Origin: Candidatus Bathyarchaeia archaeon
GTDB lineage: Archaea > Thermoproteota > Bathyarchaeia > 40CM-2-53-6
Reading direction: 5' to 3'
NCBI GenBank assembly: GCA_050013255.1
Contig: JBEKFP010000001.1
Span: 1,216,001-1,280,000 of the forward strand
DNA: 64,000 nucleotides
Shown: positions 384 to 14,607 of the stretch, one piece after another
Numbering within the stretch: the stretch's first letter is position 1
Layout of the letters: each line of letters starts with the position of its first letter
Translations under genes and position numbers: made by a program
The notes under the pieces: model-generated
Told to the model about the DNA's origin: nothing
The model's database searches: none
Seen by the model: the letters and a program-made list of their open reading frames with translations, nothing else

Positions 384-1399
384 ACCGGCTTCGGGGCGTG
401 GGCTACAATGCCTTCGCACTCGCAGTCGGTATAGTCTTGGGGCTCGCTATAGTCGTCGCCATTGGGGGCGACATTAGAGCAGCCTCAACCTCTCTTTTGT
501 TAAGTCCGATAAGTTCCGTCTATTCCTTTAGTGAGATTTTCGTTCGAGTGACCATACTTCTGATTATGGGTTTGGGAATTGCCCTTGGTCTCAGGGCCGG
601 GGTCTGGAATGTTGGTGCTGAAGGCCAATACATTGTCGGTAGCGTCATGGCGATGTACGTTGCCTTCCACGTCACATCGGTTCCTCCGTCAATAGTGATC
701 GTTCTAATGATTTTGGCAGGTGCCGCGGGAGGTCTCCTCTGGATGGTTGTTCCTGCGCTCCTTAAGGCCAAGTTTGGAGCCAATGAAATTGTAGTTACTC
801 TTCTGCTGAACCTTGTTGCCTCCAACTTCCTACTGTATGCCCTCGACGGGCCCATCCGCGGGAAAGCTTCTTTCGGCTATCTAATCTCAGATATGTTACC
901 TACTGATCTGAGAATTCCGAAACTGATTCCAGCAACAAGACTCGGGTTTGGGATTGTAATCGCTATTGTCTTGGTCGTTGCCTTCTACTTGCTGAGCGAA
1001 AGGACTTCTTTCGGACTTCAAGTTAGGACTGTGGGAAAGAATCTGGAAGCCGCAAAATACGCGGGCATTAGCGTCCCTAGAGTCTACATTGTCACTTTGC
1101 TGCTAGCGGGTGCAATGGCTGGCCTCGCTGGAGCAATTCACGTGAGCGGTGTCATTTACACCCTAGACCCCGGTTACCCCTCAGGTTATGGGTATATCGC
1201 AATAATCGTCGCGATGCTAGGTGGGACGTCTGTGATAGGCACCGCAGTCGCTTCGGTAGTCATTAGCTACTTCGTCGTTGGCGCCGAAAATATGCAAAGC
1301 GCTGCACAGGTTCCTTTCGCATTGGTCTACACAATCGAAGGAATTATCCTCTTCAGCCTAGCTGCCGGTCAGTATTTAATGGGACGGAAAAAGTCGTGA
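371..1399 (+). CDS. ABC transporter permease (nucleoside/sugar, BPD_transp_2)
   Basis: WNVGAEGQ and NEIVVTLLLN motifs, multiple TM helices; GTG start at 371 is likely (ORF track starts at 344). Confidence 0.9.
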   Translation: MQTIDRLRGVGYNAFALAVGIVLGLAIVVAIGGDIRAASTSLLLSPISSVYSFSEIFVRVTILLIMGLGIALGLRAGVWNVGAEGQYIVGSVMAMYVAFHVTSVPPSIVIVLMILAGAAGGLLWMVVPALLKAKFGANEIVVTLLLNLVASNFLLYALDGPIRGKASFGYLISDMLPTDLRIPKLIPATRLGFGIVIAIVLVVAFYLLSERTSFGLQVRTVGKNLEAAKYAGISVPRVYIVTLLLAGAMAGLAGAIHVSGVIYTLDPGYPSGYGYIAIIVAMLGGTSVIGTAVASVVISYFVVGAENMQSAAQVPFALVYTIEGIILFSLAAGQYLMGRKKS

Positions 1400-1406
1400 G
1401 TTCCAC

Positions 1407-2420
1407 TTGTTAAGTAAGTTAAGTAAGTTTTCGCTCAAGACTTGGATTTTGGCCGCCATCATAGGCGTTGCAGTTATGTTGGTGGTTTACGAGCAGTTCG
1501 GCATGTTATTCTTGGAAGCAATTCTTTACCAGACCCTCAAACTAGTTCCTGCACTCTTGCTAGCCGCTCTTGGCGAGTTAATCGCGGAAAAATCAGGTGT
1601 TCTAAACTTAGGAGTGGAAGGGCTCATGCTAATGGGTGCCTTCACGGCCTTCGGCGTAACCTACGTTACTGGAGATCCCGTGATAGGAGTGCTTGCCGCA
1701 ATGGGATTTACTGTTCTTCTCGGTCTAGCCTTCTCCTTCTTCGCGATTAGTCTGCGTACCAATCAGGTCGTAATTGGGCTCGGCCTCTGGCTCTTTGGAC
1801 TGGGGTTATCAGACACCTTGAACCGAGCTTTCTTTACGTCTGGAGCTCCGAGCACTATTCCCATAATCGGAGACATGCATATCCCGGTACTCTCAACGCT
1901 GCCATTGATTGGGAGGTTCATCTTTCAACAGAACCCCATCGTCTACATTTCCATTGCCCTCATACCTGTAGTCGACATTTTCTTGAATAGGACCAGCCTT
2001 GGCGTGAAGATTCGGGCAGTAGGTGAAAACCCGCGTGCAGCTGAAACGATGGGTGTTGACGTTTACAAGATCCGATACGTAGCCGTGCTCATAGGTGCCG
2101 CATTTGCCGGCGCGGGAGGAGCATACTACACGACAACTCTCCTGGGAACTTTCATTCTAAACATCACATTTAGCCGCGGATTCATCGCACTCGCGCTCAT
2201 CTACTTTGGTAAGTGGAAACCTTACAAAGTCTTATTGCCGTTGATTGTTTTCAGTTTTGTTGATTCTTTCCAGCTCGGTCTGCAGGGCGCAGGGGTCCCG
2301 ATCAAATACTTCTTTCTGAATATGCTCCCCTACATCACTATCGTTGCATTGATTCCAATTCTCGGTAGAAAGGCCATTGCTCCGGCTGCTCTGATGCAAC
2401 CCTACAAGAAGGGCGGGTAG
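1407..2420 (+). CDS. ABC transporter permease (nucleoside/sugar)
   Basis: EKSGVLNLGVEG, AVGENPRAA and GFIALA motifs. Confidence 0.9.
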   Translation: MLSKLSKFSLKTWILAAIIGVAVMLVVYEQFGMLFLEAILYQTLKLVPALLLAALGELIAEKSGVLNLGVEGLMLMGAFTAFGVTYVTGDPVIGVLAAMGFTVLLGLAFSFFAISLRTNQVVIGLGLWLFGLGLSDTLNRAFFTSGAPSTIPIIGDMHIPVLSTLPLIGRFIFQQNPIVYISIALIPVVDIFLNRTSLGVKIRAVGENPRAAETMGVDVYKIRYVAVLIGAAFAGAGGAYYTTTLLGTFILNITFSRGFIALALIYFGKWKPYKVLLPLIVFSFVDSFQLGLQGAGVPIKYFFLNMLPYITIVALIPILGRKAIAPAALMQPYKKGG

Positions 2421-2444
2421 GGGAGAAGGCTACTCCATCTACTA

Positions 2445-3995
2445 TTAGCTAGACTTACTCTGCGTCATCAGTTTAGCTATCTCTTCAATTTTGACGGCAC
2501 CAATAGGAAATGTTCCTGAAATTTTGCCGTTGGATATGACCGCGATTCTATCGCTCATGTCCAATAATTCATCAAGTTCAGTGGAGATAAGTAGGATTGC
2601 TTTTCCCCTTTCTTTCTCTCTCATCAGGAGCTTACGTGTATACTCCGTTGCGGCTACGTCTAAGCCCTTCGTGGGGTTGTGGGCTACTATTATCTTCGGA
2701 TCCCAGAAGAGTTCTCTCGAAAGGAGAAACTTCTGCTTATTCCCCCCTGACAGAGTCCATACAGGAACTGTTTGAGACTGGGCGCGGACGTCATACTCAG
2801 ACATGAGTTTGGTTAGTTGAATGCCAATTGATCGTAAGTCGAGCAATCCAACCTTAGTGAACATTCTAGCCACGTGCGGCTCGATTACCAAATTATCAGA
2901 TAGCGGGAAGTCGAATACCAAACCTGTCTTCTGGTCTTCAGGAATGTGCGCTACGCCGAGTTGTCTGATTTCATCAGGAACCCATCCCGTCACATCCTTA
3001 CCCATGGCAGAAATCTTCCCAGCAGTAGGTTTCCGAATGCACGTCGCTACCTCGACAAGTTCCTTCTGGCCATTCCCAGCAATACCTGCTATCCCTAGTA
3101 TCTCTCCGCCCTTGACGGAAATTGAGATCCCGTCCAAGGCGGTGAGTCCCAAGTTATTCACCGCCGATATGCTACTTAACTCAAGGAGCGGGGTAGTTGT
3201 CTCAGAGGTCAGCCTCTCCGTTCGGAACAGGACCTCACGGCCCACAATCATCTTCGCAAGTTCGGGTCCAGTCACTTTTTTCGTGCTTTCGGTGGCCACA
3301 ACTTTGCCTTGCTTCAGAACGGTAACGTTGTCGGTCACTGCTAAGATCTCATCGATCTTGTGTGAGACAAATACAATAGACTTCCCCGCCTTCGCCATTT
3401 GACGCAGAGCAGAGAAAAGTTCACGCGTTTCTAAGGGCGTGAGAACGGAGGTCGGTTCATCCAGAATCAGGACGTTTGCGCCTTTGAGAAGAGCCTTCAT
3501 AATCTCGACCGACTGCCTCTGCCCAGCAGATAGTTCACGAACCGTTGCATTCGGGTCAACGGCTAGCCCGTTTCGTTTCGAAACATCGTTGATTTCTTTT
3601 TCCAGTCTCTCGCGTTTTACGAGGGGATGCCTCAAGCTCTCGTCCTGCATTACAGCAACGTTCTCAACCACTGTCATTGAATTGATGAGCATGAACTCTT
3701 GGTGAACCATGGCGATTTTCGCGGCCATTGCGTCGCGGGGCGAGTGAAAGTGAGTTTCTTTTCCATATACTAGGATTCTTCCAGAGTCAGGTCGCAGAAG
3801 ACCATAGAGCATGTTGCACAGAGTCGTCTTTCCTGCACCATTCTCTCCAAGAAGCGCGTGGACTTCGCCTTGCTTGACGCTGAAGTTGACGTTGTCATTC
3901 GCAACGAGCGTCCCGAATCGTTTTGTTATGCCCTCAGCCACGAGTGCGTAATCATTTTCAAGTGACGTGTTTGGATTCGTCATCCCGAGTTCCAC
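2445..3995 (-). CDS. ABC transporter ATP-binding protein with two NBDs (CUT2/nucleoside type)
   Basis: Walker A GENGAGKT, LDEPT, LSGGNKQK, PTKGLDV. Confidence 0.95.
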   Translation of the reverse strand: MELGMTNPNTSLENDYALVAEGITKRFGTLVANDNVNFSVKQGEVHALLGENGAGKTTLCNMLYGLLRPDSGRILVYGKETHFHSPRDAMAAKIAMVHQEFMLINSMTVVENVAVMQDESLRHPLVKRERLEKEINDVSKRNGLAVDPNATVRELSAGQRQSVEIMKALLKGANVLILDEPTSVLTPLETRELFSALRQMAKAGKSIVFVSHKIDEILAVTDNVTVLKQGKVVATESTKKVTGPELAKMIVGREVLFRTERLTSETTTPLLELSSISAVNNLGLTALDGISISVKGGEILGIAGIAGNGQKELVEVATCIRKPTAGKISAMGKDVTGWVPDEIRQLGVAHIPEDQKTGLVFDFPLSDNLVIEPHVARMFTKVGLLDLRSIGIQLTKLMSEYDVRAQSQTVPVWTLSGGNKQKFLLSRELFWDPKIIVAHNPTKGLDVAATEYTRKLLMREKERGKAILLISTELDELLDMSDRIAVISNGKISGTFPIGAVKIEEIAKLMTQSKSS

Positions 3996-4053
3996 TGTGT
4001 TGGAGAGAATGATTGGGCTAAAGAGTGTTGTGGCAATTCTGAAATGATTATAC

Positions 4054-5013
4054 TTGGAGAAATTACTCTATGTGCTTCATTATCTGCTTGGACGCCGGCA
4101 ACGCGTATTAGCGCATGCCCGCAGAGTAGACGGAATCACGACATGGGGATGGGTAGTAGTGAAGCTAGGCAGTCCAAAATTCGTCAAAGGGCTCCTACTT
4201 GCATCTCTGATGATTCTCGTACTTTGTATTTCTTCGCCACCGATGGCATCATACGCGCTTCAAGACGCGAAAATAGAACTAACCTTTAGCAATGATAGAC
4301 CCTTGCGGGGGGATGTCATAACAATTGCTGGACGCCTCTCAACGACAGTAGACAATCGTCCAATCCCTTTAGCCTCAGTTAGTTTGGAATACACTAGGGT
4401 GGGAGATACAAGCCCAACCCGCGAGGTATCCATGATTACCTCGAACCCCAGCGGTCTCTTTCAGGACATTGTGAACACAACATATCTCCTACGAATCGGT
4501 CCATGGATAGTCAATGCATCATTTCCAAGCCAGGTAGGTTACCAAGCGACATCAACCACGAAAACATTCACGGTAGTCGTCCAGCCAAGCCTCTCACTTT
4601 ACCTCTCCATGAATCACGTCAGCCTCGGTCGCGAAGTTGAGTTCAACGGGCTCCTGTTTGCTTGCATTCCATGCCTTCATGACCAAGTCGTTGTAAAACT
4701 GTTCCGCCCAGATAATACATCAATTATGCTAACCCTCGACCTCAATGCTATAGGCGGGCCCTACCCAGCAGGGTTCTATGAAGGCAGTTACGTACCTGAT
4801 ACGCCGGGCCAATGGCATATTCAAGCCATCTGGGAAGGAGATAACGTGAGTCTACCTGCATACTCGGAGGTCCATACGCTGGATGTCGAATCACAGTCGA
4901 ATCTTGCAGGACTCCCTGTAATGCAGTTCTACGAAGTCCTTGCTATCATAGCGGGAGCAATTGCACTAGCGGTCTTTCTCATACGAAGGCGCGTCAGCAA
5001 ACGGCCTCAGTAA
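4054..5013 (+). CDS. Secreted/membrane-anchored Ig-like domain protein
   Basis: Signal-like hydrophobic segment, beta-rich repeats, C-terminal TM followed by RRR; true start probably ~4150. Confidence 0.65.
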   Translation: MEKLLYVLHYLLGRRQRVLAHARRVDGITTWGWVVVKLGSPKFVKGLLLASLMILVLCISSPPMASYALQDAKIELTFSNDRPLRGDVITIAGRLSTTVDNRPIPLASVSLEYTRVGDTSPTREVSMITSNPSGLFQDIVNTTYLLRIGPWIVNASFPSQVGYQATSTTKTFTVVVQPSLSLYLSMNHVSLGREVEFNGLLFACIPCLHDQVVVKLFRPDNTSIMLTLDLNAIGGPYPAGFYEGSYVPDTPGQWHIQAIWEGDNVSLPAYSEVHTLDVESQSNLAGLPVMQFYEVLAIIAGAIALAVFLIRRRVSKRPQ

Positions 5014-5029
5014 GATGACCGTGACTGGG

Positions 5030-5767
5030 TTAGACGTCTGCTTTCTCTGGAATCCTGAATTTTTGCGACTTGGCTAGCAGGTCCTTTGGTACCGGTTTCT
5101 CACCAAGGTAGCGGGCGTACTTCAATTTCACGAAGTTCTCCCAGTCTTCCTTCGCAGTGTAGAAGATCCGTGAGCCACCGAGTTCGTGCTGCATCTCGGG
5201 GAAGGGTTTCTGCTTGGGAGCCCATTCAGTTCCCATGATCCTCAGGCCGATGTAGCTTTCGAAGGTTGCCCACCATTCCCTCGCTCCCAAATGGTCAAAG
5301 GCGTGCTCCATCTTCGCGAAGTAGAGGGCGGGCCCCACATCAATACCACGTTTGAATGACATTGTGTGAAGGCTGATCGCGATATTCTGATCCCACATTC
5401 TTGCGTTGACGATTCCTACTAGTTTGTCGTCTTGAATTCCCAGTAGCAGGTAGTGGTCCTTAATTCTGTACATCTTCCAGGCCAAGATTTCTGCGTACGT
5501 CCGCCACGCGACGATATCGTAGAAGTCTTTGTTGACATCGACGTAGAGTCTAACTGCCTTGAGAACCTCTGGTGCTTCGGCTCGACTGGCTTGCCGAACA
5601 ACAATTTTGCTTCCATCCTTCATACCCACAAGCTTGGGAGGGTAAACGGCTTTTTCCAAGTAGGGAGCGTCAACAGCCCTGAGAATCGCCTCCATATCCT
5701 GAACTCGCAACTTATGTTCCGTCATAGAGACTTCTGTTGGCGGTTCATAGTAAGTCATAGAATTCAC
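5030..5767 (-). CDS. Conserved hypothetical protein, GNAT-like fold
   Basis: KIVVRQA...LVGIVNAR...KRGIDVG pattern resembles GNAT. Confidence 0.5.
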   Translation of the reverse strand: MNSMTYYEPPTEVSMTEHKLRVQDMEAILRAVDAPYLEKAVYPPKLVGMKDGSKIVVRQASRAEAPEVLKAVRLYVDVNKDFYDIVAWRTYAEILAWKMYRIKDHYLLLGIQDDKLVGIVNARMWDQNIAISLHTMSFKRGIDVGPALYFAKMEHAFDHLGAREWWATFESYIGLRIMGTEWAPKQKPFPEMQHELGGSRIFYTAKEDWENFVKLKYARYLGEKPVPKDLLAKSQKFRIPEKADV

Positions 5768-5953
5768 TTGGAGGGCTGAAGTGAATTTGTTCCAATATGA
5801 GTGTTATTCTTCGTTTCCAGCATGTCTAGTAACGCTACAACCTCTATTCGAAAGTTGGGGAATTTTCATTTGATTCATTCCGTTATTGTCGCATGTAGTA
5901 AATGCCCAAAAGACTTGTCAAGCGGGCAACTCGAACTTGATTTTGAGCGAGCC

Positions 5954-6802
5954 TTGAAGTTTCTTGACTTAACTATCCCACTCGGAATTGCTACACCACC
6001 GTGGCCGACGTACGAACCGCTTCAGCTGAAATACTTCAAACGGTTGGCTCCCAACGGAGCGAACGGCCAAGTCCTAACGCACTCGAACCATGTCGGAACC
6101 CATTTGGACGGTGAGATCCATTTCTTCACCCCTGGAAAGGATATGGCGAGTTTGACGATGGACTTCCTGGTTGGACCGGGCGCTGTTGTCGACCTTTCCG
6201 ATGTTGCCGGTGATTACGATGTATACACTTCGAAGATGATTGAAGATAGAGTCAAAGTTGGAGAAGGCGACATACTCCTCATCCATACTGGCTACCACAG
6301 GTATGGTTGGGATCAACCGACGGCGGACGAGATTCGGTATATGGTGAAGCACCCAGGCCCAGACAGGGAGTTTGCCGAATGGGCGAAGCGGAAGAAGATC
6401 AAATGGATTGGCGTCGACTGCGGCAGCGCCGACCATCCAATGAACACGATTATTCGTGATTGGATGCCCAGACAGGCAAAAGAGGCTGACGCGCACTTTC
6501 AGAAGAAGTTCGGCATGAAATTGAACGAGTACTTCACGGACGATAAGTACCAACTCATGCATATCGAAATGTTTCCTTATGGAATCATTCACGCCGAATG
6601 CGTTGGCGGCGACATAGACCTACTCCTCAACAAACGCACAACCATCGGCTTCTTCCCGTGGCGCTTCGTAGACGGCGAGGCAAGCATTGGACGGTGTGTA
6701 GCCGTCATGGATGATACCGAATACGAACAAGCGATGAAAAAGAAAGCCGCGCTACCGAAAACCCGCTTTGGGGATTCGATCGGATGCAAAGGTTTCAAGT
6801 GA
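5954..6802 (+). CDS. Cyclase family metallohydrolase (kynurenine formamidase-like)
   Basis: HxGTHxD (HVGTHLD), GDILLIHTG, IGVDCGSAD; TTG start giving MKFLDLT. Confidence 0.9.
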   Translation: MKFLDLTIPLGIATPPWPTYEPLQLKYFKRLAPNGANGQVLTHSNHVGTHLDGEIHFFTPGKDMASLTMDFLVGPGAVVDLSDVAGDYDVYTSKMIEDRVKVGEGDILLIHTGYHRYGWDQPTADEIRYMVKHPGPDREFAEWAKRKKIKWIGVDCGSADHPMNTIIRDWMPRQAKEADAHFQKKFGMKLNEYFTDDKYQLMHIEMFPYGIIHAECVGGDIDLLLNKRTTIGFFPWRFVDGEASIGRCVAVMDDTEYEQAMKKKAALPKTRFGDSIGCKGFK

Positions 6803-6857
6803 ATTAAGGACCCCTTCCATTTTACACTCAGCTTGAGGCCAGAATAGACAGCTGTGC

Positions 6858-7133
6858 TTACCGCTTTCTGGCAGTCGCATGTATCGCAAACATAGAAACT
6901 ACTAGGGCGATAAGGACCCAGATCGCTAGGTCTGCCATGAACATGTCCCAAAGAATATGGTCGCCCATCGGGATCACTCGTATGACCCATGGAAACGGTG
7001 CCCCCTTTTGGACCACGTCAACACCCATCCTGGTGAAGGGCGTCATGAATAGGCCCGAAATGGCCGTAACAACCGCCCCAACTATCGCAGAGGTTACCAT
7101 ACCAATTGCAAACTTGGATTTCAACCCAGACAC
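6858..7133 (-). CDS. Small membrane protein
   Basis: Two TM helices and a GAPFPW loop. Confidence 0.55.
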   Translation of the reverse strand: MSGLKSKFAIGMVTSAIVGAVVTAISGLFMTPFTRMGVDVVQKGAPFPWVIRVIPMGDHILWDMFMADLAIWVLIALVVSMFAIHATARKR

Positions 7134-7242
7134 TTCCGCATCGAATTAGACAGTCCGCCTCCCGCGTAATCAATCAATAATTTCGAACGCGTGTTCGGCA
7201 TGTTCGAACAAATCACTTCACACTTGCTTACACGAATAATCA

Positions 7243-7265
7243 GGAAGAAAAAAGGTAAAGAAAAA
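7243..7265 (-). terminator. Oligo-T tract downstream of alba
   Basis: Plus-strand A-rich GGAAGAAAAAAGGTAAAGAAAAA reads as a U-rich tract on the alba strand. Confidence 0.5.
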
Positions 7266-7302
7266 TGGTGATGAGGTTCATCCACGAACCGTCGAGTTTA
7301 GG

Positions 7303-7650
7303 CTACTTCTTCGTTAGCTTAATCTCGATCGTGGAAACATTTCTCGTTTGGCCCTCTTCACCTAGCACTTCGGTTCCTATGTTCACGTCCTTTATCTCCA
7401 ACTTTCCTTCGAAGAAGCGTCTTCGGCAAACTTCGACTACGTCGACTGCCTTAGATATGACGCGGCCTCGTGCCTTAACGGAAAGTTCCTTAGAACCACT
7501 GTTGATTTGCATAACGATAGCGGTTGCGTAGGCCATCAACGGTTTCTGGCCGATTAGGACTGTATTCATTGGAATGTTGCCTCTGGTGGAAGGGGCTCTT
7601 TGCGCAACTGGCGCAACTGGCGTTACTGGCGTAACTGGTTTTTCTGTCAA
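7303..7650 (-). CDS. albA: DNA/RNA-binding protein Alba
   Basis: VLIGQKPLMAY...KARGRVISKAVDVVE...NVSTIEI; GGAGGTGA Shine-Dalgarno before the TTG at 7650. Confidence 0.95.
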   Translation of the reverse strand: MTEKPVTPVTPVAPVAQRAPSTRGNIPMNTVLIGQKPLMAYATAIVMQINSGSKELSVKARGRVISKAVDVVEVCRRRFFEGKLEIKDVNIGTEVLGEEGQTRNVSTIEIKLTKK

Positions 7651-7886
7651 GCGTTGTTCACCTCCGTGATGAAAGTATGCTGGAAGTGTTGTAGCATCGG
7701 CGACACCACTTCCAACGAATAAAAGCCTTCCTGCGTGAACCGACTGATTCAAACCTGGAACACGTGAGTGATTTTTCAATTCTCGCAGTTCGTAAGGACT
7801 GTAAGAAGCCATAGTTTTGGAAGAACGAATGTGCAGTCGAGGCGCATTAAATAGGATGTTAATGCATTCCCAAACCTAGAGCACAT

Positions 7887-8210
7887 ATGGCGGAGAGCAG
7901 CCCCGAGAAGAAGAGCCCGTCAAAATTGGAAATTGACAGGGCGAATGATTTCAAATTCCATATCGCTTACGGCGTTTATTCCCGAACGTGGGATGAGAAT
8001 TCTTCAGACGCGACTCGATTGAAACTTAACGAATTGATTTCGTCTCTTGCAAGCAATGAGGACGGGTATCAGGATTTCTACGGCCAAATTCAGGAATTCC
8101 GGAGGGATCAGCCAGCCTTCCGATCCGGTCGGACAAGAATTGAGACTCAAAGGAAGAGAGACTGGCAGCGGGCTGATACGAGGGATGGGAGAAACCGCCG
8201 CCACAAATAA
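7887..8210 (+). CDS. Hypothetical protein with basic C-terminus
   Basis: ATG ORF with protein-like composition and an upstream TATA-like TTAAATA. Confidence 0.6.
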   Translation: MAESSPEKKSPSKLEIDRANDFKFHIAYGVYSRTWDENSSDATRLKLNELISSLASNEDGYQDFYGQIQEFRRDQPAFRSGRTRIETQRKRDWQRADTRDGRNRRHK

Positions 8211-12533: not shown

Positions 12534-12748
12534 GGCTCGTTGAGCCGGGCCTGTAGACCGGTTCGTATGAGGGGATCGAGGCGTAAAATGAGGCGAGGGT
12601 TGCCTTCGTTTGGCACCGTTTGGCACCACCCCAAGATGGGTGGATCCACCCTCTTCCTTGCGAAAGGTTGTGGCGAAGCTACGGGATTTTGGCCATCATG
12701 GGAGCAGGGTTGTGCGCGCACGCTTGACAGGGGGGGTAGGGGGGGTGG

Positions 12749-12802
12749 GGTTCTGGTAACTTTTGAAGGGGGCTTTTCTCAGTGGTAACTGGGTAGGGGG
12801 GC
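12749..12802 (-). repeat. Bipartite GCCCCC..GTTACCA..AGAACC site, copy L (inverted relative to M and R)
   Basis: Reverse complement reads GCCCCCCTACCCAGTTACCACTGAGAAAAGCCCCCTTCAAAAGTTACCAGAACC. Confidence 0.65.
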
Positions 12803-12838
12803 GTTTTAAATGGCTATCATCACCTATGAAAGATAGCC

Positions 12839-13566
12839 ATGTATCAGAAACTCGGCCATTCCCTAGTGAAGTTCGTAAAGGCCATCTTCGGACTTGCCTT
12901 CATGCTCATAGTTACGGTTGGATTAGCGGTTGCGGCAGTCTACCTGATTCAACTCGTACTCATCCCAGCGGCCCAAGGGTTCGTATCGAATCTAGCCGTT
13001 ATCGTTGGCATAACGGAAGTTATCATAGCGATAGCCATAGGCGCAGAGGCTTTTGTTGGAGTTTCCACTTTTTTATGGAACGACGAGATAGGCACTATCA
13101 CTACTTGAATGAGCAAGTTTTCAAGCCTCTTTCAGAACTCCGAGTAGAACGGAAGTCCACTCCAACTAGAACAGAAATCCACCTATTGTCGATACGAGTT
13201 CCGAAAGATGCCTATCTGTGGGAGTCTGCGGTAAAGCACATGATGAAAGGCGATGAACTTAGACGGGGTATGCCTGAGTTTATCAAGAAAGTTGAGAAGA
13301 AGATTGAGGTTCACAATCAACAAGCCGCTTCTTTCAGTGGACCAGAGTTGGAAAATGCCGTAGAAGATTTGATGCGTGCTCAAAGAGGAAGGGGAGAGGT
13401 TAGACTCACTGACCTAGAACGTAGCACAAGCGAGATTGATGCCGATGTAGAGGCCATACGAGGCGCATTTTCCTCTATATCTAAGGCCATTGAAGTTGAC
13501 CAGTATAGCGTAAAGGCGGATTGCTGTCCGACAATTAGAACCATACTAAGGCAATATTGGTTCTAG
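12839..13566 (+). CDS. Membrane-anchored hypothetical protein interrupted by a -1 frameshift at ~13075
   Basis: TM-rich ORF 12839-13108 continues in the -1 frame as ERRDRHYHYLNEQVFKPL... to 13566. Confidence 0.6.
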
Positions 13567-13737
13567 TCCTCGTTCTTCGCTAGATCGAAGGGCAACGAAT
13601 CTACTACGACTACCTACGCCCACACACAGCCCTCGATGGCAAGACACCAGCGCAAGCGGCTGGAATCGAACTTGGCTTGACAGGGAACAAGTGGGAATCC
13701 ATAATAAGAAAGTCTGCAAAGAATTGCTCTGATAGAC

Positions 13738-13932
13738 ATGCCAACAATATTCAAGACCAAACGTAGCATTGATACGCGTATTGTGAGTAATGCAATCCGA
13801 AACGCTGGCTTCAAAGACATTTCAATGGTTGTATCTTCAGATGACAACAACAATACCACTATCGTTAGGGTCGATTCGCCGCTAAGCCCAGAAGACGAAA
13901 CGAAGATCAGGAAAATAGTCGACGGTCTCTAG
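13738..13932 (+). CDS. Small hypothetical protein (64 aa)
   Basis: ATG ORF with alpha/beta pattern; stop codon abuts repeat site M. Confidence 0.55.
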   Translation: MPTIFKTKRSIDTRIVSNAIRNAGFKDISMVVSSDDNNNTTIVRVDSPLSPEDETKIRKIVDGL

Positions 13933-13935
13933 GCT

Positions 13936-13986
13936 GCCCCCAGAAGTTACCAGACCAACAAACCACCCACCTAAGTTACTAGAACC
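13936..13986 (+). repeat. Bipartite site, copy M
   Basis: GCCCCCAGAAGTTACCAGACCAACAAACCACCCACCTAAGTTACTAGAACC. Confidence 0.65.
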
Positions 13987-14017
13987 TACAACGCTGTACC
14001 CCCTACAAGTTGAAGGA

Positions 14018-14344
14018 ATGCAAATGGGCGACAAAACCGTCTTCCTAAAAGATGTAACCATTGCTTTTCTATCTACGAGTGCGCTGCTTCTTACATTGGT
14101 CTTGGCATTCATTTCACCGTCACTTCCAAAATTGGCGGTCACGAAATACCTAGTTTTGTTTGCAACAGTAGGGTTCTTCTTTACCGGTTTTATGAGCGCA
14201 TATACCTTAGTTGCTTTAGGAGGCGTTGTTGGAGGTGACGATAGAGCACTAGGAGTGCGAAGCCTGTTACTCTTCCAATTCTTTCCTTTCTTTCTAGGAC
14301 TGCTCTTTCTCTTGGTAGCCGTCGTGCTTGAACTCCAGCTCTAA
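14018..14344 (+). CDS. Small 3-TM membrane protein
   Basis: Three hydrophobic helices; stop codon abuts repeat site R. Confidence 0.6.
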   Translation: MQMGDKTVFLKDVTIAFLSTSALLLTLVLAFISPSLPKLAVTKYLVLFATVGFFFTGFMSAYTLVALGGVVGGDDRALGVRSLLLFQFFPFFLGLLFLLVAVVLELQL

Positions 14345-14346
14345 GT

Positions 14347-14407
14347 GCCCCCCAGTTGTTAGCACCAACAAAATCTAGACGTGCCCCCCATCCAACTTAG
14401 CAGAACC
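14347..14407 (+). repeat. Bipartite site, copy R
   Basis: GCCCCCCAGTTGTTAGCACCAACAAAATCTAGACGTGCCCCCCATCCAACTTAGCAGAACC. Confidence 0.6.
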
Positions 14408-14607
14408 GGGGGTGGTGCATTTTTTGGAGTCAGACGGGGTTGATTTTGGGCCGTTTTGGTTGGAGAGCAACATCAGGCTTGGGATGTTTTGGTTATCATG
14501 TACCTCTTCCCTGGCGAATATGGTCCTCTTCATGTGCGAATGTATTGGCCAGCATACATATCCAATGATTGGGTGTCATACACCCGGACGCCCCTTGGCC
14601 TCTTATC

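Follow-up and report, generated by a model that had tools for sequence, protein, structure and literature searches.

The stretch of DNA considered here, referred to as the window, comprises 64,000 nucleotides of contig JBEKFP010000001.1 from a Candidatus Bathyarchaeia archaeon (positions 1,216,001 to 1,280,000 of the forward strand), and this work deals with an islet at positions 12749-14407, in which small open reading frames (ORFs) are interspersed with three related sites, denoted L, M and R. These sites had been pointed out in an earlier reading of the bare sequence (the original prediction), and they were confirmed at 12749-12802 (L, in minus sense), 13936-13986 (M) and 14347-14407 (R), with M beginning 3 nt past the TAG codon at 13930-13932 and R 2 nt past the TAA codon at 14342-14344. 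The inverted repeat proposed to relate the outer parts of L and R was also borne out (25 nt, 72%). The string GCCCCC, followed after 0-8 nt by AGTTAC, has three occurrences in the window, where 0.05 would be expected, and none in the rest of the 2.46-Mb genome. The features of the islet and of its flanks are as follows.

12545-12748, plus strand: host dispersed-repeat DNA on the left, with many own-genome copies and an alignment to empty sites
12609-12652: TTGGCACC-tandem/hairpin module within the left host repeat
12711-12748: GCGCGCACGCTTG..G7-TA-G7 module within the left host repeat
12741-12748, no strand: left copy of the target site duplication, repeated at both tips
12749-12808, plus strand: L, outer terminal bipartite end
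12839-13108, plus strand: ORF89, 89 aa, predicted membrane protein, cargo
13105-13566, plus strand: ORF of 153 aa, soluble, cargo
13584-13733, plus strand: transposase remnant
13738-13932, plus strand: ORF64
13932-13986, minus strand: M, internal bipartite end, in the same orientation as R
14018-14344, plus strand: ORF108, membrane protein, cargo between M and R
14342-14407, minus strand: R, outer terminal bipartite end
14408-14415, no strand: right copy of the target site duplication, repeated at both tips
14408-14600, plus strand: host dispersed-repeat DNA on the right, with a GGTGGTGCATTTTTTGG.GTCA..GGGGTTGATTTTG module and a further module at 14537-14592

Two features overlooked in the first reading, an 8-bp direct repeat and the remnant of a transposase gene, bear on the nature of the islet. 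The repeat, GGGGGTGG, adjoins both tips of the 12749-14407 interval, which starts with GGTTCTG and ends with CAGAACC, and this combination of target site duplication (TSD) and terminal motifs constitutes the signature of a DDE transposon. A search of the own genome revealed that the islet is flanked on both sides by parts of a host repeat with many copies, and that in three uninterrupted copies of this repeat, located at C1:978 kb, C2:425 kb and C2:594 kb (C1 being the contig that holds the window), the left flank continues directly into the right one. When positions 12749-14415 were excised in silico, approximately 70 nt could be aligned to these three empty copies with roughly 90% identity and no break, which argues against the notion that the GGGGGTGG repeats simply belong to the consensus of the host repeat. 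The islet thus represents an insertion, which entered a copy of the dispersed host repeat directly after a run of G residues (G-run).

The second overlooked feature lies at 13584-13733, where frame 3 encodes IEGQRIYYDYLRPHTALDGKTPAQAAGIE..NKW, the C-terminus (about 46-50 residues) of an rve/IS240-type DDE transposase, so that the statement that the window lacks a recombinase gene was only half right. The remnant gives a weak match to rve_3, and its positions 13584-13721 align with residues 332-377 of a 379-aa transposase from a relative of the same genus (G014) with 87% identity; the portion of the gene upstream of 13584 is deleted or replaced. The G014 protein is composed of a SWIM domain, a zinc ribbon and a DDE domain, scores 134.7 bits on the NCBIfam model NF033587 (‘IS6 family transposase’), above its cut-off of 125, and matches PF13610 with 59.9 bits. 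Among plasmid-borne proteins, it comes closest to the long IS6 transposases of clostridia (about 30% identity). Genome G017 has another intact copy, which shares 79% identity with that of G014, and intact transposases are known at two loci in related genomes (L013, in G014, with the gene at 4534-5673 on the minus strand, and L021). No cognate transposase was found in the own genome, where the nearest paralogue is 37% identical. Two full-length SWIM-IS6 elements of that genome, L001 and L002, were considered as possible mobilisers and are unlikely in that role, given that their ends differ from L, M and R and that their transposases are those with only 37% identity. With such distant paralogues and different ends in its own genome, the window element is to be regarded as non-autonomous and currently orphaned, or stranded.

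The islet thus combines consensus-matching ends, a TSD and a transposase gene reduced to its last 46 codons or so, with autonomous partners in G014 and G017 and not in its own genome. The type of DDE transposase, deduced through the G014 relative, the 8-bp length of the duplication and the GG tips with a G at position 7 all correspond to the IS6 family. Taken together, we conclude that 12749-14407 is very probably a decayed, non-autonomous 1,659-bp member of a group of IS6-like transposons from Bathyarchaeia, in which L and R are the terminal inverted repeats and M is a third, internal end.

The 11-mer GCTTGACAGGG, whose repetition had also been noticed, is a chance repeat: one copy lies within the host repeat and the other within conserved transposase coding sequence, and 19% of the shuffles of the interval yield an exact 11-mer repeat.

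The architecture of the ends was derived from their relatives. A model based on sequence only, R1, was built from 11 well-aligning ends and used for the scan of the genome and its relatives that had been suggested at the outset. In the own genome it matched L (50 bits, E 1e-15), M (52 bits) and R (42.9 bits) and nothing else; within the genus, 10 of the 22 genomes other than the own one gave matches, and across the order 18 of 105 did so (6 of 25 genera), counting the own genome (G000). Two blocks stand out as strongly conserved in an alignment of 35 ends, with a spacer of variable length in between, the tip block having the consensus GGTTCTG-N-TAACTT-N4-GGG-N-GG (with a nearly invariant GGTTCTG) and the inner one TG-N-TAACT-N4-GGGGG. 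Every end is consequently a direct repeat of a module of about 20 nt, made of TG-N-TAAC, 4-6 nt and a G-run, and falls into one of two size classes, with a repeat distance of either 29 nt or roughly 38 nt. L shows the outer site GGTTCTGGTAAC..GGGGG and, 29 nt farther inside, the inner site TGGTAAC..GGGGGG, whereas R has the long spacing of about 38 nt. As judged from this repeated layout, each end may contain two binding sites for the transposase.

Each of the three ends has close counterparts elsewhere. L shares 82% identity with its L-type counterpart in G014; M is 88% identical to the M-type end of genome G011 and 82% to that of G014, and in both of these genomes the M-type end is an outer end located beside the target duplication; R-type relatives exist in G014, G011 and G018. 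At L013, in G014, ends of the L, R and M types surround the intact transposase gene in a unit of 4.9 kb. Duplications of 8 bp were verified for five insertions, namely the window element (GGGGGTGG) and those of G014 (CGCTTGGA), G011 (ATGCACCC), G018 (CACGACAC) and G066 (CGTAACCC). A metagenome scan with the outer 18-mer of M produced nine chance matches and no full end, and it yielded no strain variants.

Some additional observations were made on ends of this kind. The own-genome paralogue L002 (G000:C2:558000-563000), a SWIM-IS6 element of 3.7 kb, also has bipartite ends, at 1197-1272 and 4834-4920, with the half-site TGTTAC-N6-GGTTGA, while the ends of L001 (GGTTCTGTCAAAAG..) are near the bacterial IS6 consensus. 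In L032 (G099:C140), a 2.2-kb element with ends at 2004 and 4238, the flanking 45 nt are almost identical (two mismatches) and inverted, as if either the true inverted repeat were much longer or the flank had been inverted and duplicated. Lastly, an L-type end in L016 (G019:C1:23000-32000, interval 1032-4718) is followed by an 82-aa ORF and a 1,089-aa ORF; a second end was not found within 9 kb, and the locus could represent either a solo end or a large element with cargo.

The window element is not alone in having more than two ends, as units with additional co-oriented ends are present in six genomes (the window, G014, G011, G007, G068 and G067). In G014 the order is L, R-type and M-type, with the CGCTTGGA duplication around the outermost pair. 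G011 carries two co-oriented ends 71 nt apart and its TSD is also found on the outermost pair, as in the window, whereas in G007 the two ends are 60 nt apart; in both genomes just 9-11 nt, and no cargo, lie between the tandem ends. Two co-oriented ends are found in G067. In G068 one end opposes three co-oriented ends, with small cargo before each of them. Four cases can be oriented by means of a transposase gene or what is left of it, and in all four the extra ends lie on the 3' side of that gene. Together with the preference for G-runs described below, these recurrences identify M as the internal end of a three-ended composite, which would most likely have been formed by nesting of elements and pairing of the outermost ends.

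The G068 locus (L031; G068:C5:120500-130500, interval 2299-8026) was inspected separately. Its co-oriented ends, at 6451, 7282 and 8026, each come after one or two ORFs for small membrane proteins, and it also holds a transposase remnant and a gene for a secreted repeat protein of 759 aa. A target duplication could not be identified at this locus.

The choice of target shows a strong bias. Of the five verified insertions, four hit members of a single host repeat family, at points that differ by no more than about 25 bp. In addition, when the first 20 nt outside each tip were considered, 8 of 28 outer flanks (representing 19 insertion events) had a run of at least five G, 3-12 nt away, compared with a background of 0.8% per flank. 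The corresponding binomial P of 4e-11 overstates the evidence, because relatives are not independent, and its background was taken from the own genome only. The same geometry is seen at internal junctions of G011, G007 and G067, the G-run being in the first two genomes the inner one of another end, and also beyond M in the window, with GGGGG at a distance of 12 nt from the M tip. A T/A-rich box at a fixed distance, as expected for promoter or TATA targeting, was not consistently found across the insertion sites of this subfamily. The idea that the G-run keeps a fixed orientation with respect to the transposase gene was also considered and dropped, since the counts were mixed (about 2 for and 2-3 against).

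The genes carried by the element can be described as follows. ORF89, which has no Pfam family, and the 153-aa ORF, whose TTG start overlaps the ORF89 stop (TTGA), look like two coupled genes and not like a frameshifted fusion, as judged from the start shared by homologues of the latter. The 153-aa protein has two homologues, P0003 and P0004 (50-52% identical); the start MNEQVF is common to P0004 and to the own-genome gene call P0002, and P0003 also has a long upstream open frame, in the form of an R/S/H-rich extension. ORF64 has no homologue in the genus; it lies between transposase gene and end, a place at which relatives carry a small ORF. ORF108 corresponds to the gene call P0001 (106 aa, start at 14024), which is present on 29 contigs, and it has weak homologues in G019 and G008 (32-37% identical) with no ends nearby, a situation that fits a captured host-type membrane gene. 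The description of these genes as ORFans is therefore correct only in part, given the homologues of the 153-aa ORF and the weak ones of ORF108. The cargo beside the L end shows no conservation between the window and G014.

The intergenic region (12545-12673 and 12711-12748 on one side, 14408-14448 and 14537-14592 on the other) is a patchwork of dispersed host repeats. One module consists of the TTGGCACC tandem plus a GGTGGATCCACC hairpin and has about 15 copies; another comprises GCGCGCACGCTTG, a C6/G6 palindrome (or G7-TA-G7) and GGTGCATTTTTTGG..GGGGTTGATTTTG, and has 8 copies, some in tandem and several upstream of RHH/VapBC-like genes; a third one has at least 5 copies. Scans of the window for tRNAs and Rfam families gave no match, so the sites are neither tRNA-derived att sites nor a known RNA, and scans for sigma-70 promoters and terminators performed no better than on shuffled sequence.

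Several other explanations can be confronted with these data. The original prediction had offered two, of which the first was itself twofold: the sites could be the multi-site ends of a non-autonomous element mobilised in trans, which is essentially what was found, or the recombination sites of an integron-like cassette array, acted upon by a tyrosine recombinase of the IntI or XerA type. The latter was suggested by the position of two sites 2-3 nt after the stop codons of small ORFs, and we give it hardly any credence: when folded as single strands, none of the three sites does better than its shuffles on either strand (z from -1.5 to +0.75), the two halves of each site are repeated directly and do not form the imperfect palindromes of attC, Phage_integrase-family (PF00589) matches occur on contigs C2 and C3 and none on C1, and the hallmarks of a transposon (TSD, terminal inverted repeats and DDE transposase remnant) are present. 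The second proposal was that the sites are origin recognition boxes (ORB) bound by Orc1/Cdc6, on the basis of the inner half-site of L (CAGTGGTAAC..GGGGGG), which may be loosely ORB-like. That likeness is limited to L-type inner half-sites, the family consensus being TG-N-TAAC. Moreover, the sites are the tips of an insertion missing from the empty paralogous copies, and other genomes have mobile units that are delimited by these ends and located at unrelated places. The orc1/cdc6 genes (Cdc6_C matches) map at C1:694 kb and C3:196 kb, that is, more than 530 kb from the locus (C1:1,229 kb) or on another contig; the DNA between the sites is coding, with 46-52% GC and no AT-rich unwinding region; and the cumulative GC skew, which is weak in this genome, has no turning point at the locus. 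An origin at this place is accordingly about as implausible as an integron.

Other alternatives accept the transposon and differ in the way in which the third end was acquired. Two independent elements might have landed next to each other at a single target, with a later loss of the left portion of the second one, and the concentration of four of the five TSD-verified insertions in a single repeat family would favor this scenario. Nevertheless, no 8-bp target copy follows M (TACAACGC is found there), while GGGGGTGG flanks the whole unit; the duplication pairs L with R, indicating that the composite was transposed as a whole; apart from one weak half-site-like G-run 12 nt from M, the interval between M and R holds neither a left end nor a relic; and the three-ended pattern of G014, G011 and G068 would require repeated identical deletions. 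This makes stacking a poor candidate. Only slightly better placed, and still improbable, is the accretion of cassettes by the transposase, in which circular modules made of an ORF and one end (here, the units ORF64-M and ORF108-R) would join a resident end through a reaction similar to the ‘targeted conservative’ one of IS26. It would account for the recurrence of co-oriented extra ends after small cargo (three in a row in G068, and also in the window, G014 and G067) and for their location on the transposase 3' side, and it would likewise keep the original TSD around the outermost ends. Against it, no circular or single-end module was seen, the ORF108 homologues found elsewhere carry no end, the IS26 reaction as described uses whole IS copies and not solo ends, and the cargo-less tandem ends of G011 and G007 are better explained by nesting.

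The interpretation of the islet as a nested IS6-like transposon has its own weak points. The window copy has no intact transposase, and its assignment to the family, deduced from sequence comparison, relies on a 46-residue remnant and on ends shared with relatives. Its size of 1.66 kb (up to 4.9 kb in relatives), its 3-4 cargo ORFs and its bipartite ends of 55-65 bp depart from the classical definition of IS6, and Harmer and Hall doubt that archaeal and long forms belong in this family. No target duplication was found at the elements of G017 and G068. Elements are present at about one copy per genome, with no donor or nested precursor found, and this tempers the proposed history of nesting and alternative pairing; furthermore, internal ends are not consistently below outer ends in model score, which leaves the simple skipping of a defective end without support. 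The G-run figures are likewise limited by their single-genome background and by the interdependence of the relatives.

With these reservations, the history of the nested transposon could be outlined in three steps. In the first step, members of the group would land preferentially a few bp from a G-run. In the second step, the G-runs present in every end would make the ends themselves attractive targets, so that elements would tend to nest in one another. In the third step, the transposase would pair the outermost ends, that is, the L end of the inner element and the R end of the outer one, and the inner element, ORF108 and R would move as one unit, possibly through replicative chemistry of the IS6 type. 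In the case of the window, the L..M element would have entered a small element composed of a left end, ORF108 and R, after which L and R would have been transposed jointly into the host repeat, and the transposase gene would have been cut later to its last 46 codons or so. A more speculative extension, which we put forward tentatively, is that the G-run-reading DNA-binding module of the half-sites may also read the target, and that repeated nesting and outermost pairing builds the co-oriented arrays of ‘cargo plus end’ (three in G068, one in the window), resulting in an integron-like accretion driven by a DDE transposase.

For the locus itself the result is deflationary, as it reveals a stranded transposon relic and no lead on an archaeal integron or origin. 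For the IS6-like elements of archaea, which have been little studied, it nonetheless contributes a concrete subfamily that is defined by sequence and characterized by two binding-site-like modules per end, passenger genes, a strong bias to G-runs and to one host repeat, and frequent extra-ended units. The intact transposases at L013 and L021 provide direct material for biochemistry and, if true, the route of nesting and re-pairing would explain the pick-up and shuffling of small genes in uncultured archaea.

IS6 elements generate an 8-bp target duplication and have ends starting with GG and with a G at position 7; the classical forms have repeats of 14-20 bp and a length of about 0.7-0.9 kb, with the transposase as the sole gene, and a single passenger-carrying member, ISDsp3, is listed (PMC6807381, PMC7986276). 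Bipartite ends, G-run targeting and multi-ended units were not found described in these two IS6 reviews, in which the word ‘subterminal’ appears 0 times, or in literature searches. The group studied here resembles IS6/IS26, and especially the ISCpe7-like clostridial zinc-finger clades and the archaeal group, in its 8-bp TSD, its GG start, G7 and CTG core, and the IS6-model transposase of the intact relatives. In contrast, it differs in length (1.66 kb for the window copy and 2.3-4.9 kb for passenger-carrying relatives, versus about 0.8 kb), in its bipartite ends of 55-65 bp versus 14-20 bp, in the extra SWIM domain of the relatives’ transposase, in its G-run-biased insertion and in its units with three or four ends. 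The own-genome SWIM-IS6 element L002 shares the bipartite layout, the half-site of the window subfamily being TGGTAAC..GGGGGG.

The resemblance to integron attC cassettes lies in the small ORFs closely trailed by a recombination-type site and in the co-oriented arrays, such as that of G068, whereas the absence of a hairpin-forming imperfect palindrome and of IntI, together with the DDE remnant, the terminal inverted repeats and the TSD, sets both systems apart. The remaining parallel is with ISEcp1-type units, which consist of the left inverted repeat (IRL), the transposase gene (tnp), the right inverted repeat (IRR), a captured gene and an alternative IRR, with the TSD flanking the whole. As in those units, the window element encloses a proximal right end, beyond which come captured DNA and another right end, and the TSD surrounds the ensemble. 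The transposase family is different and, unlike the weak look-alike used by ISEcp1, the distal end of the window element is a full bipartite end of its family.

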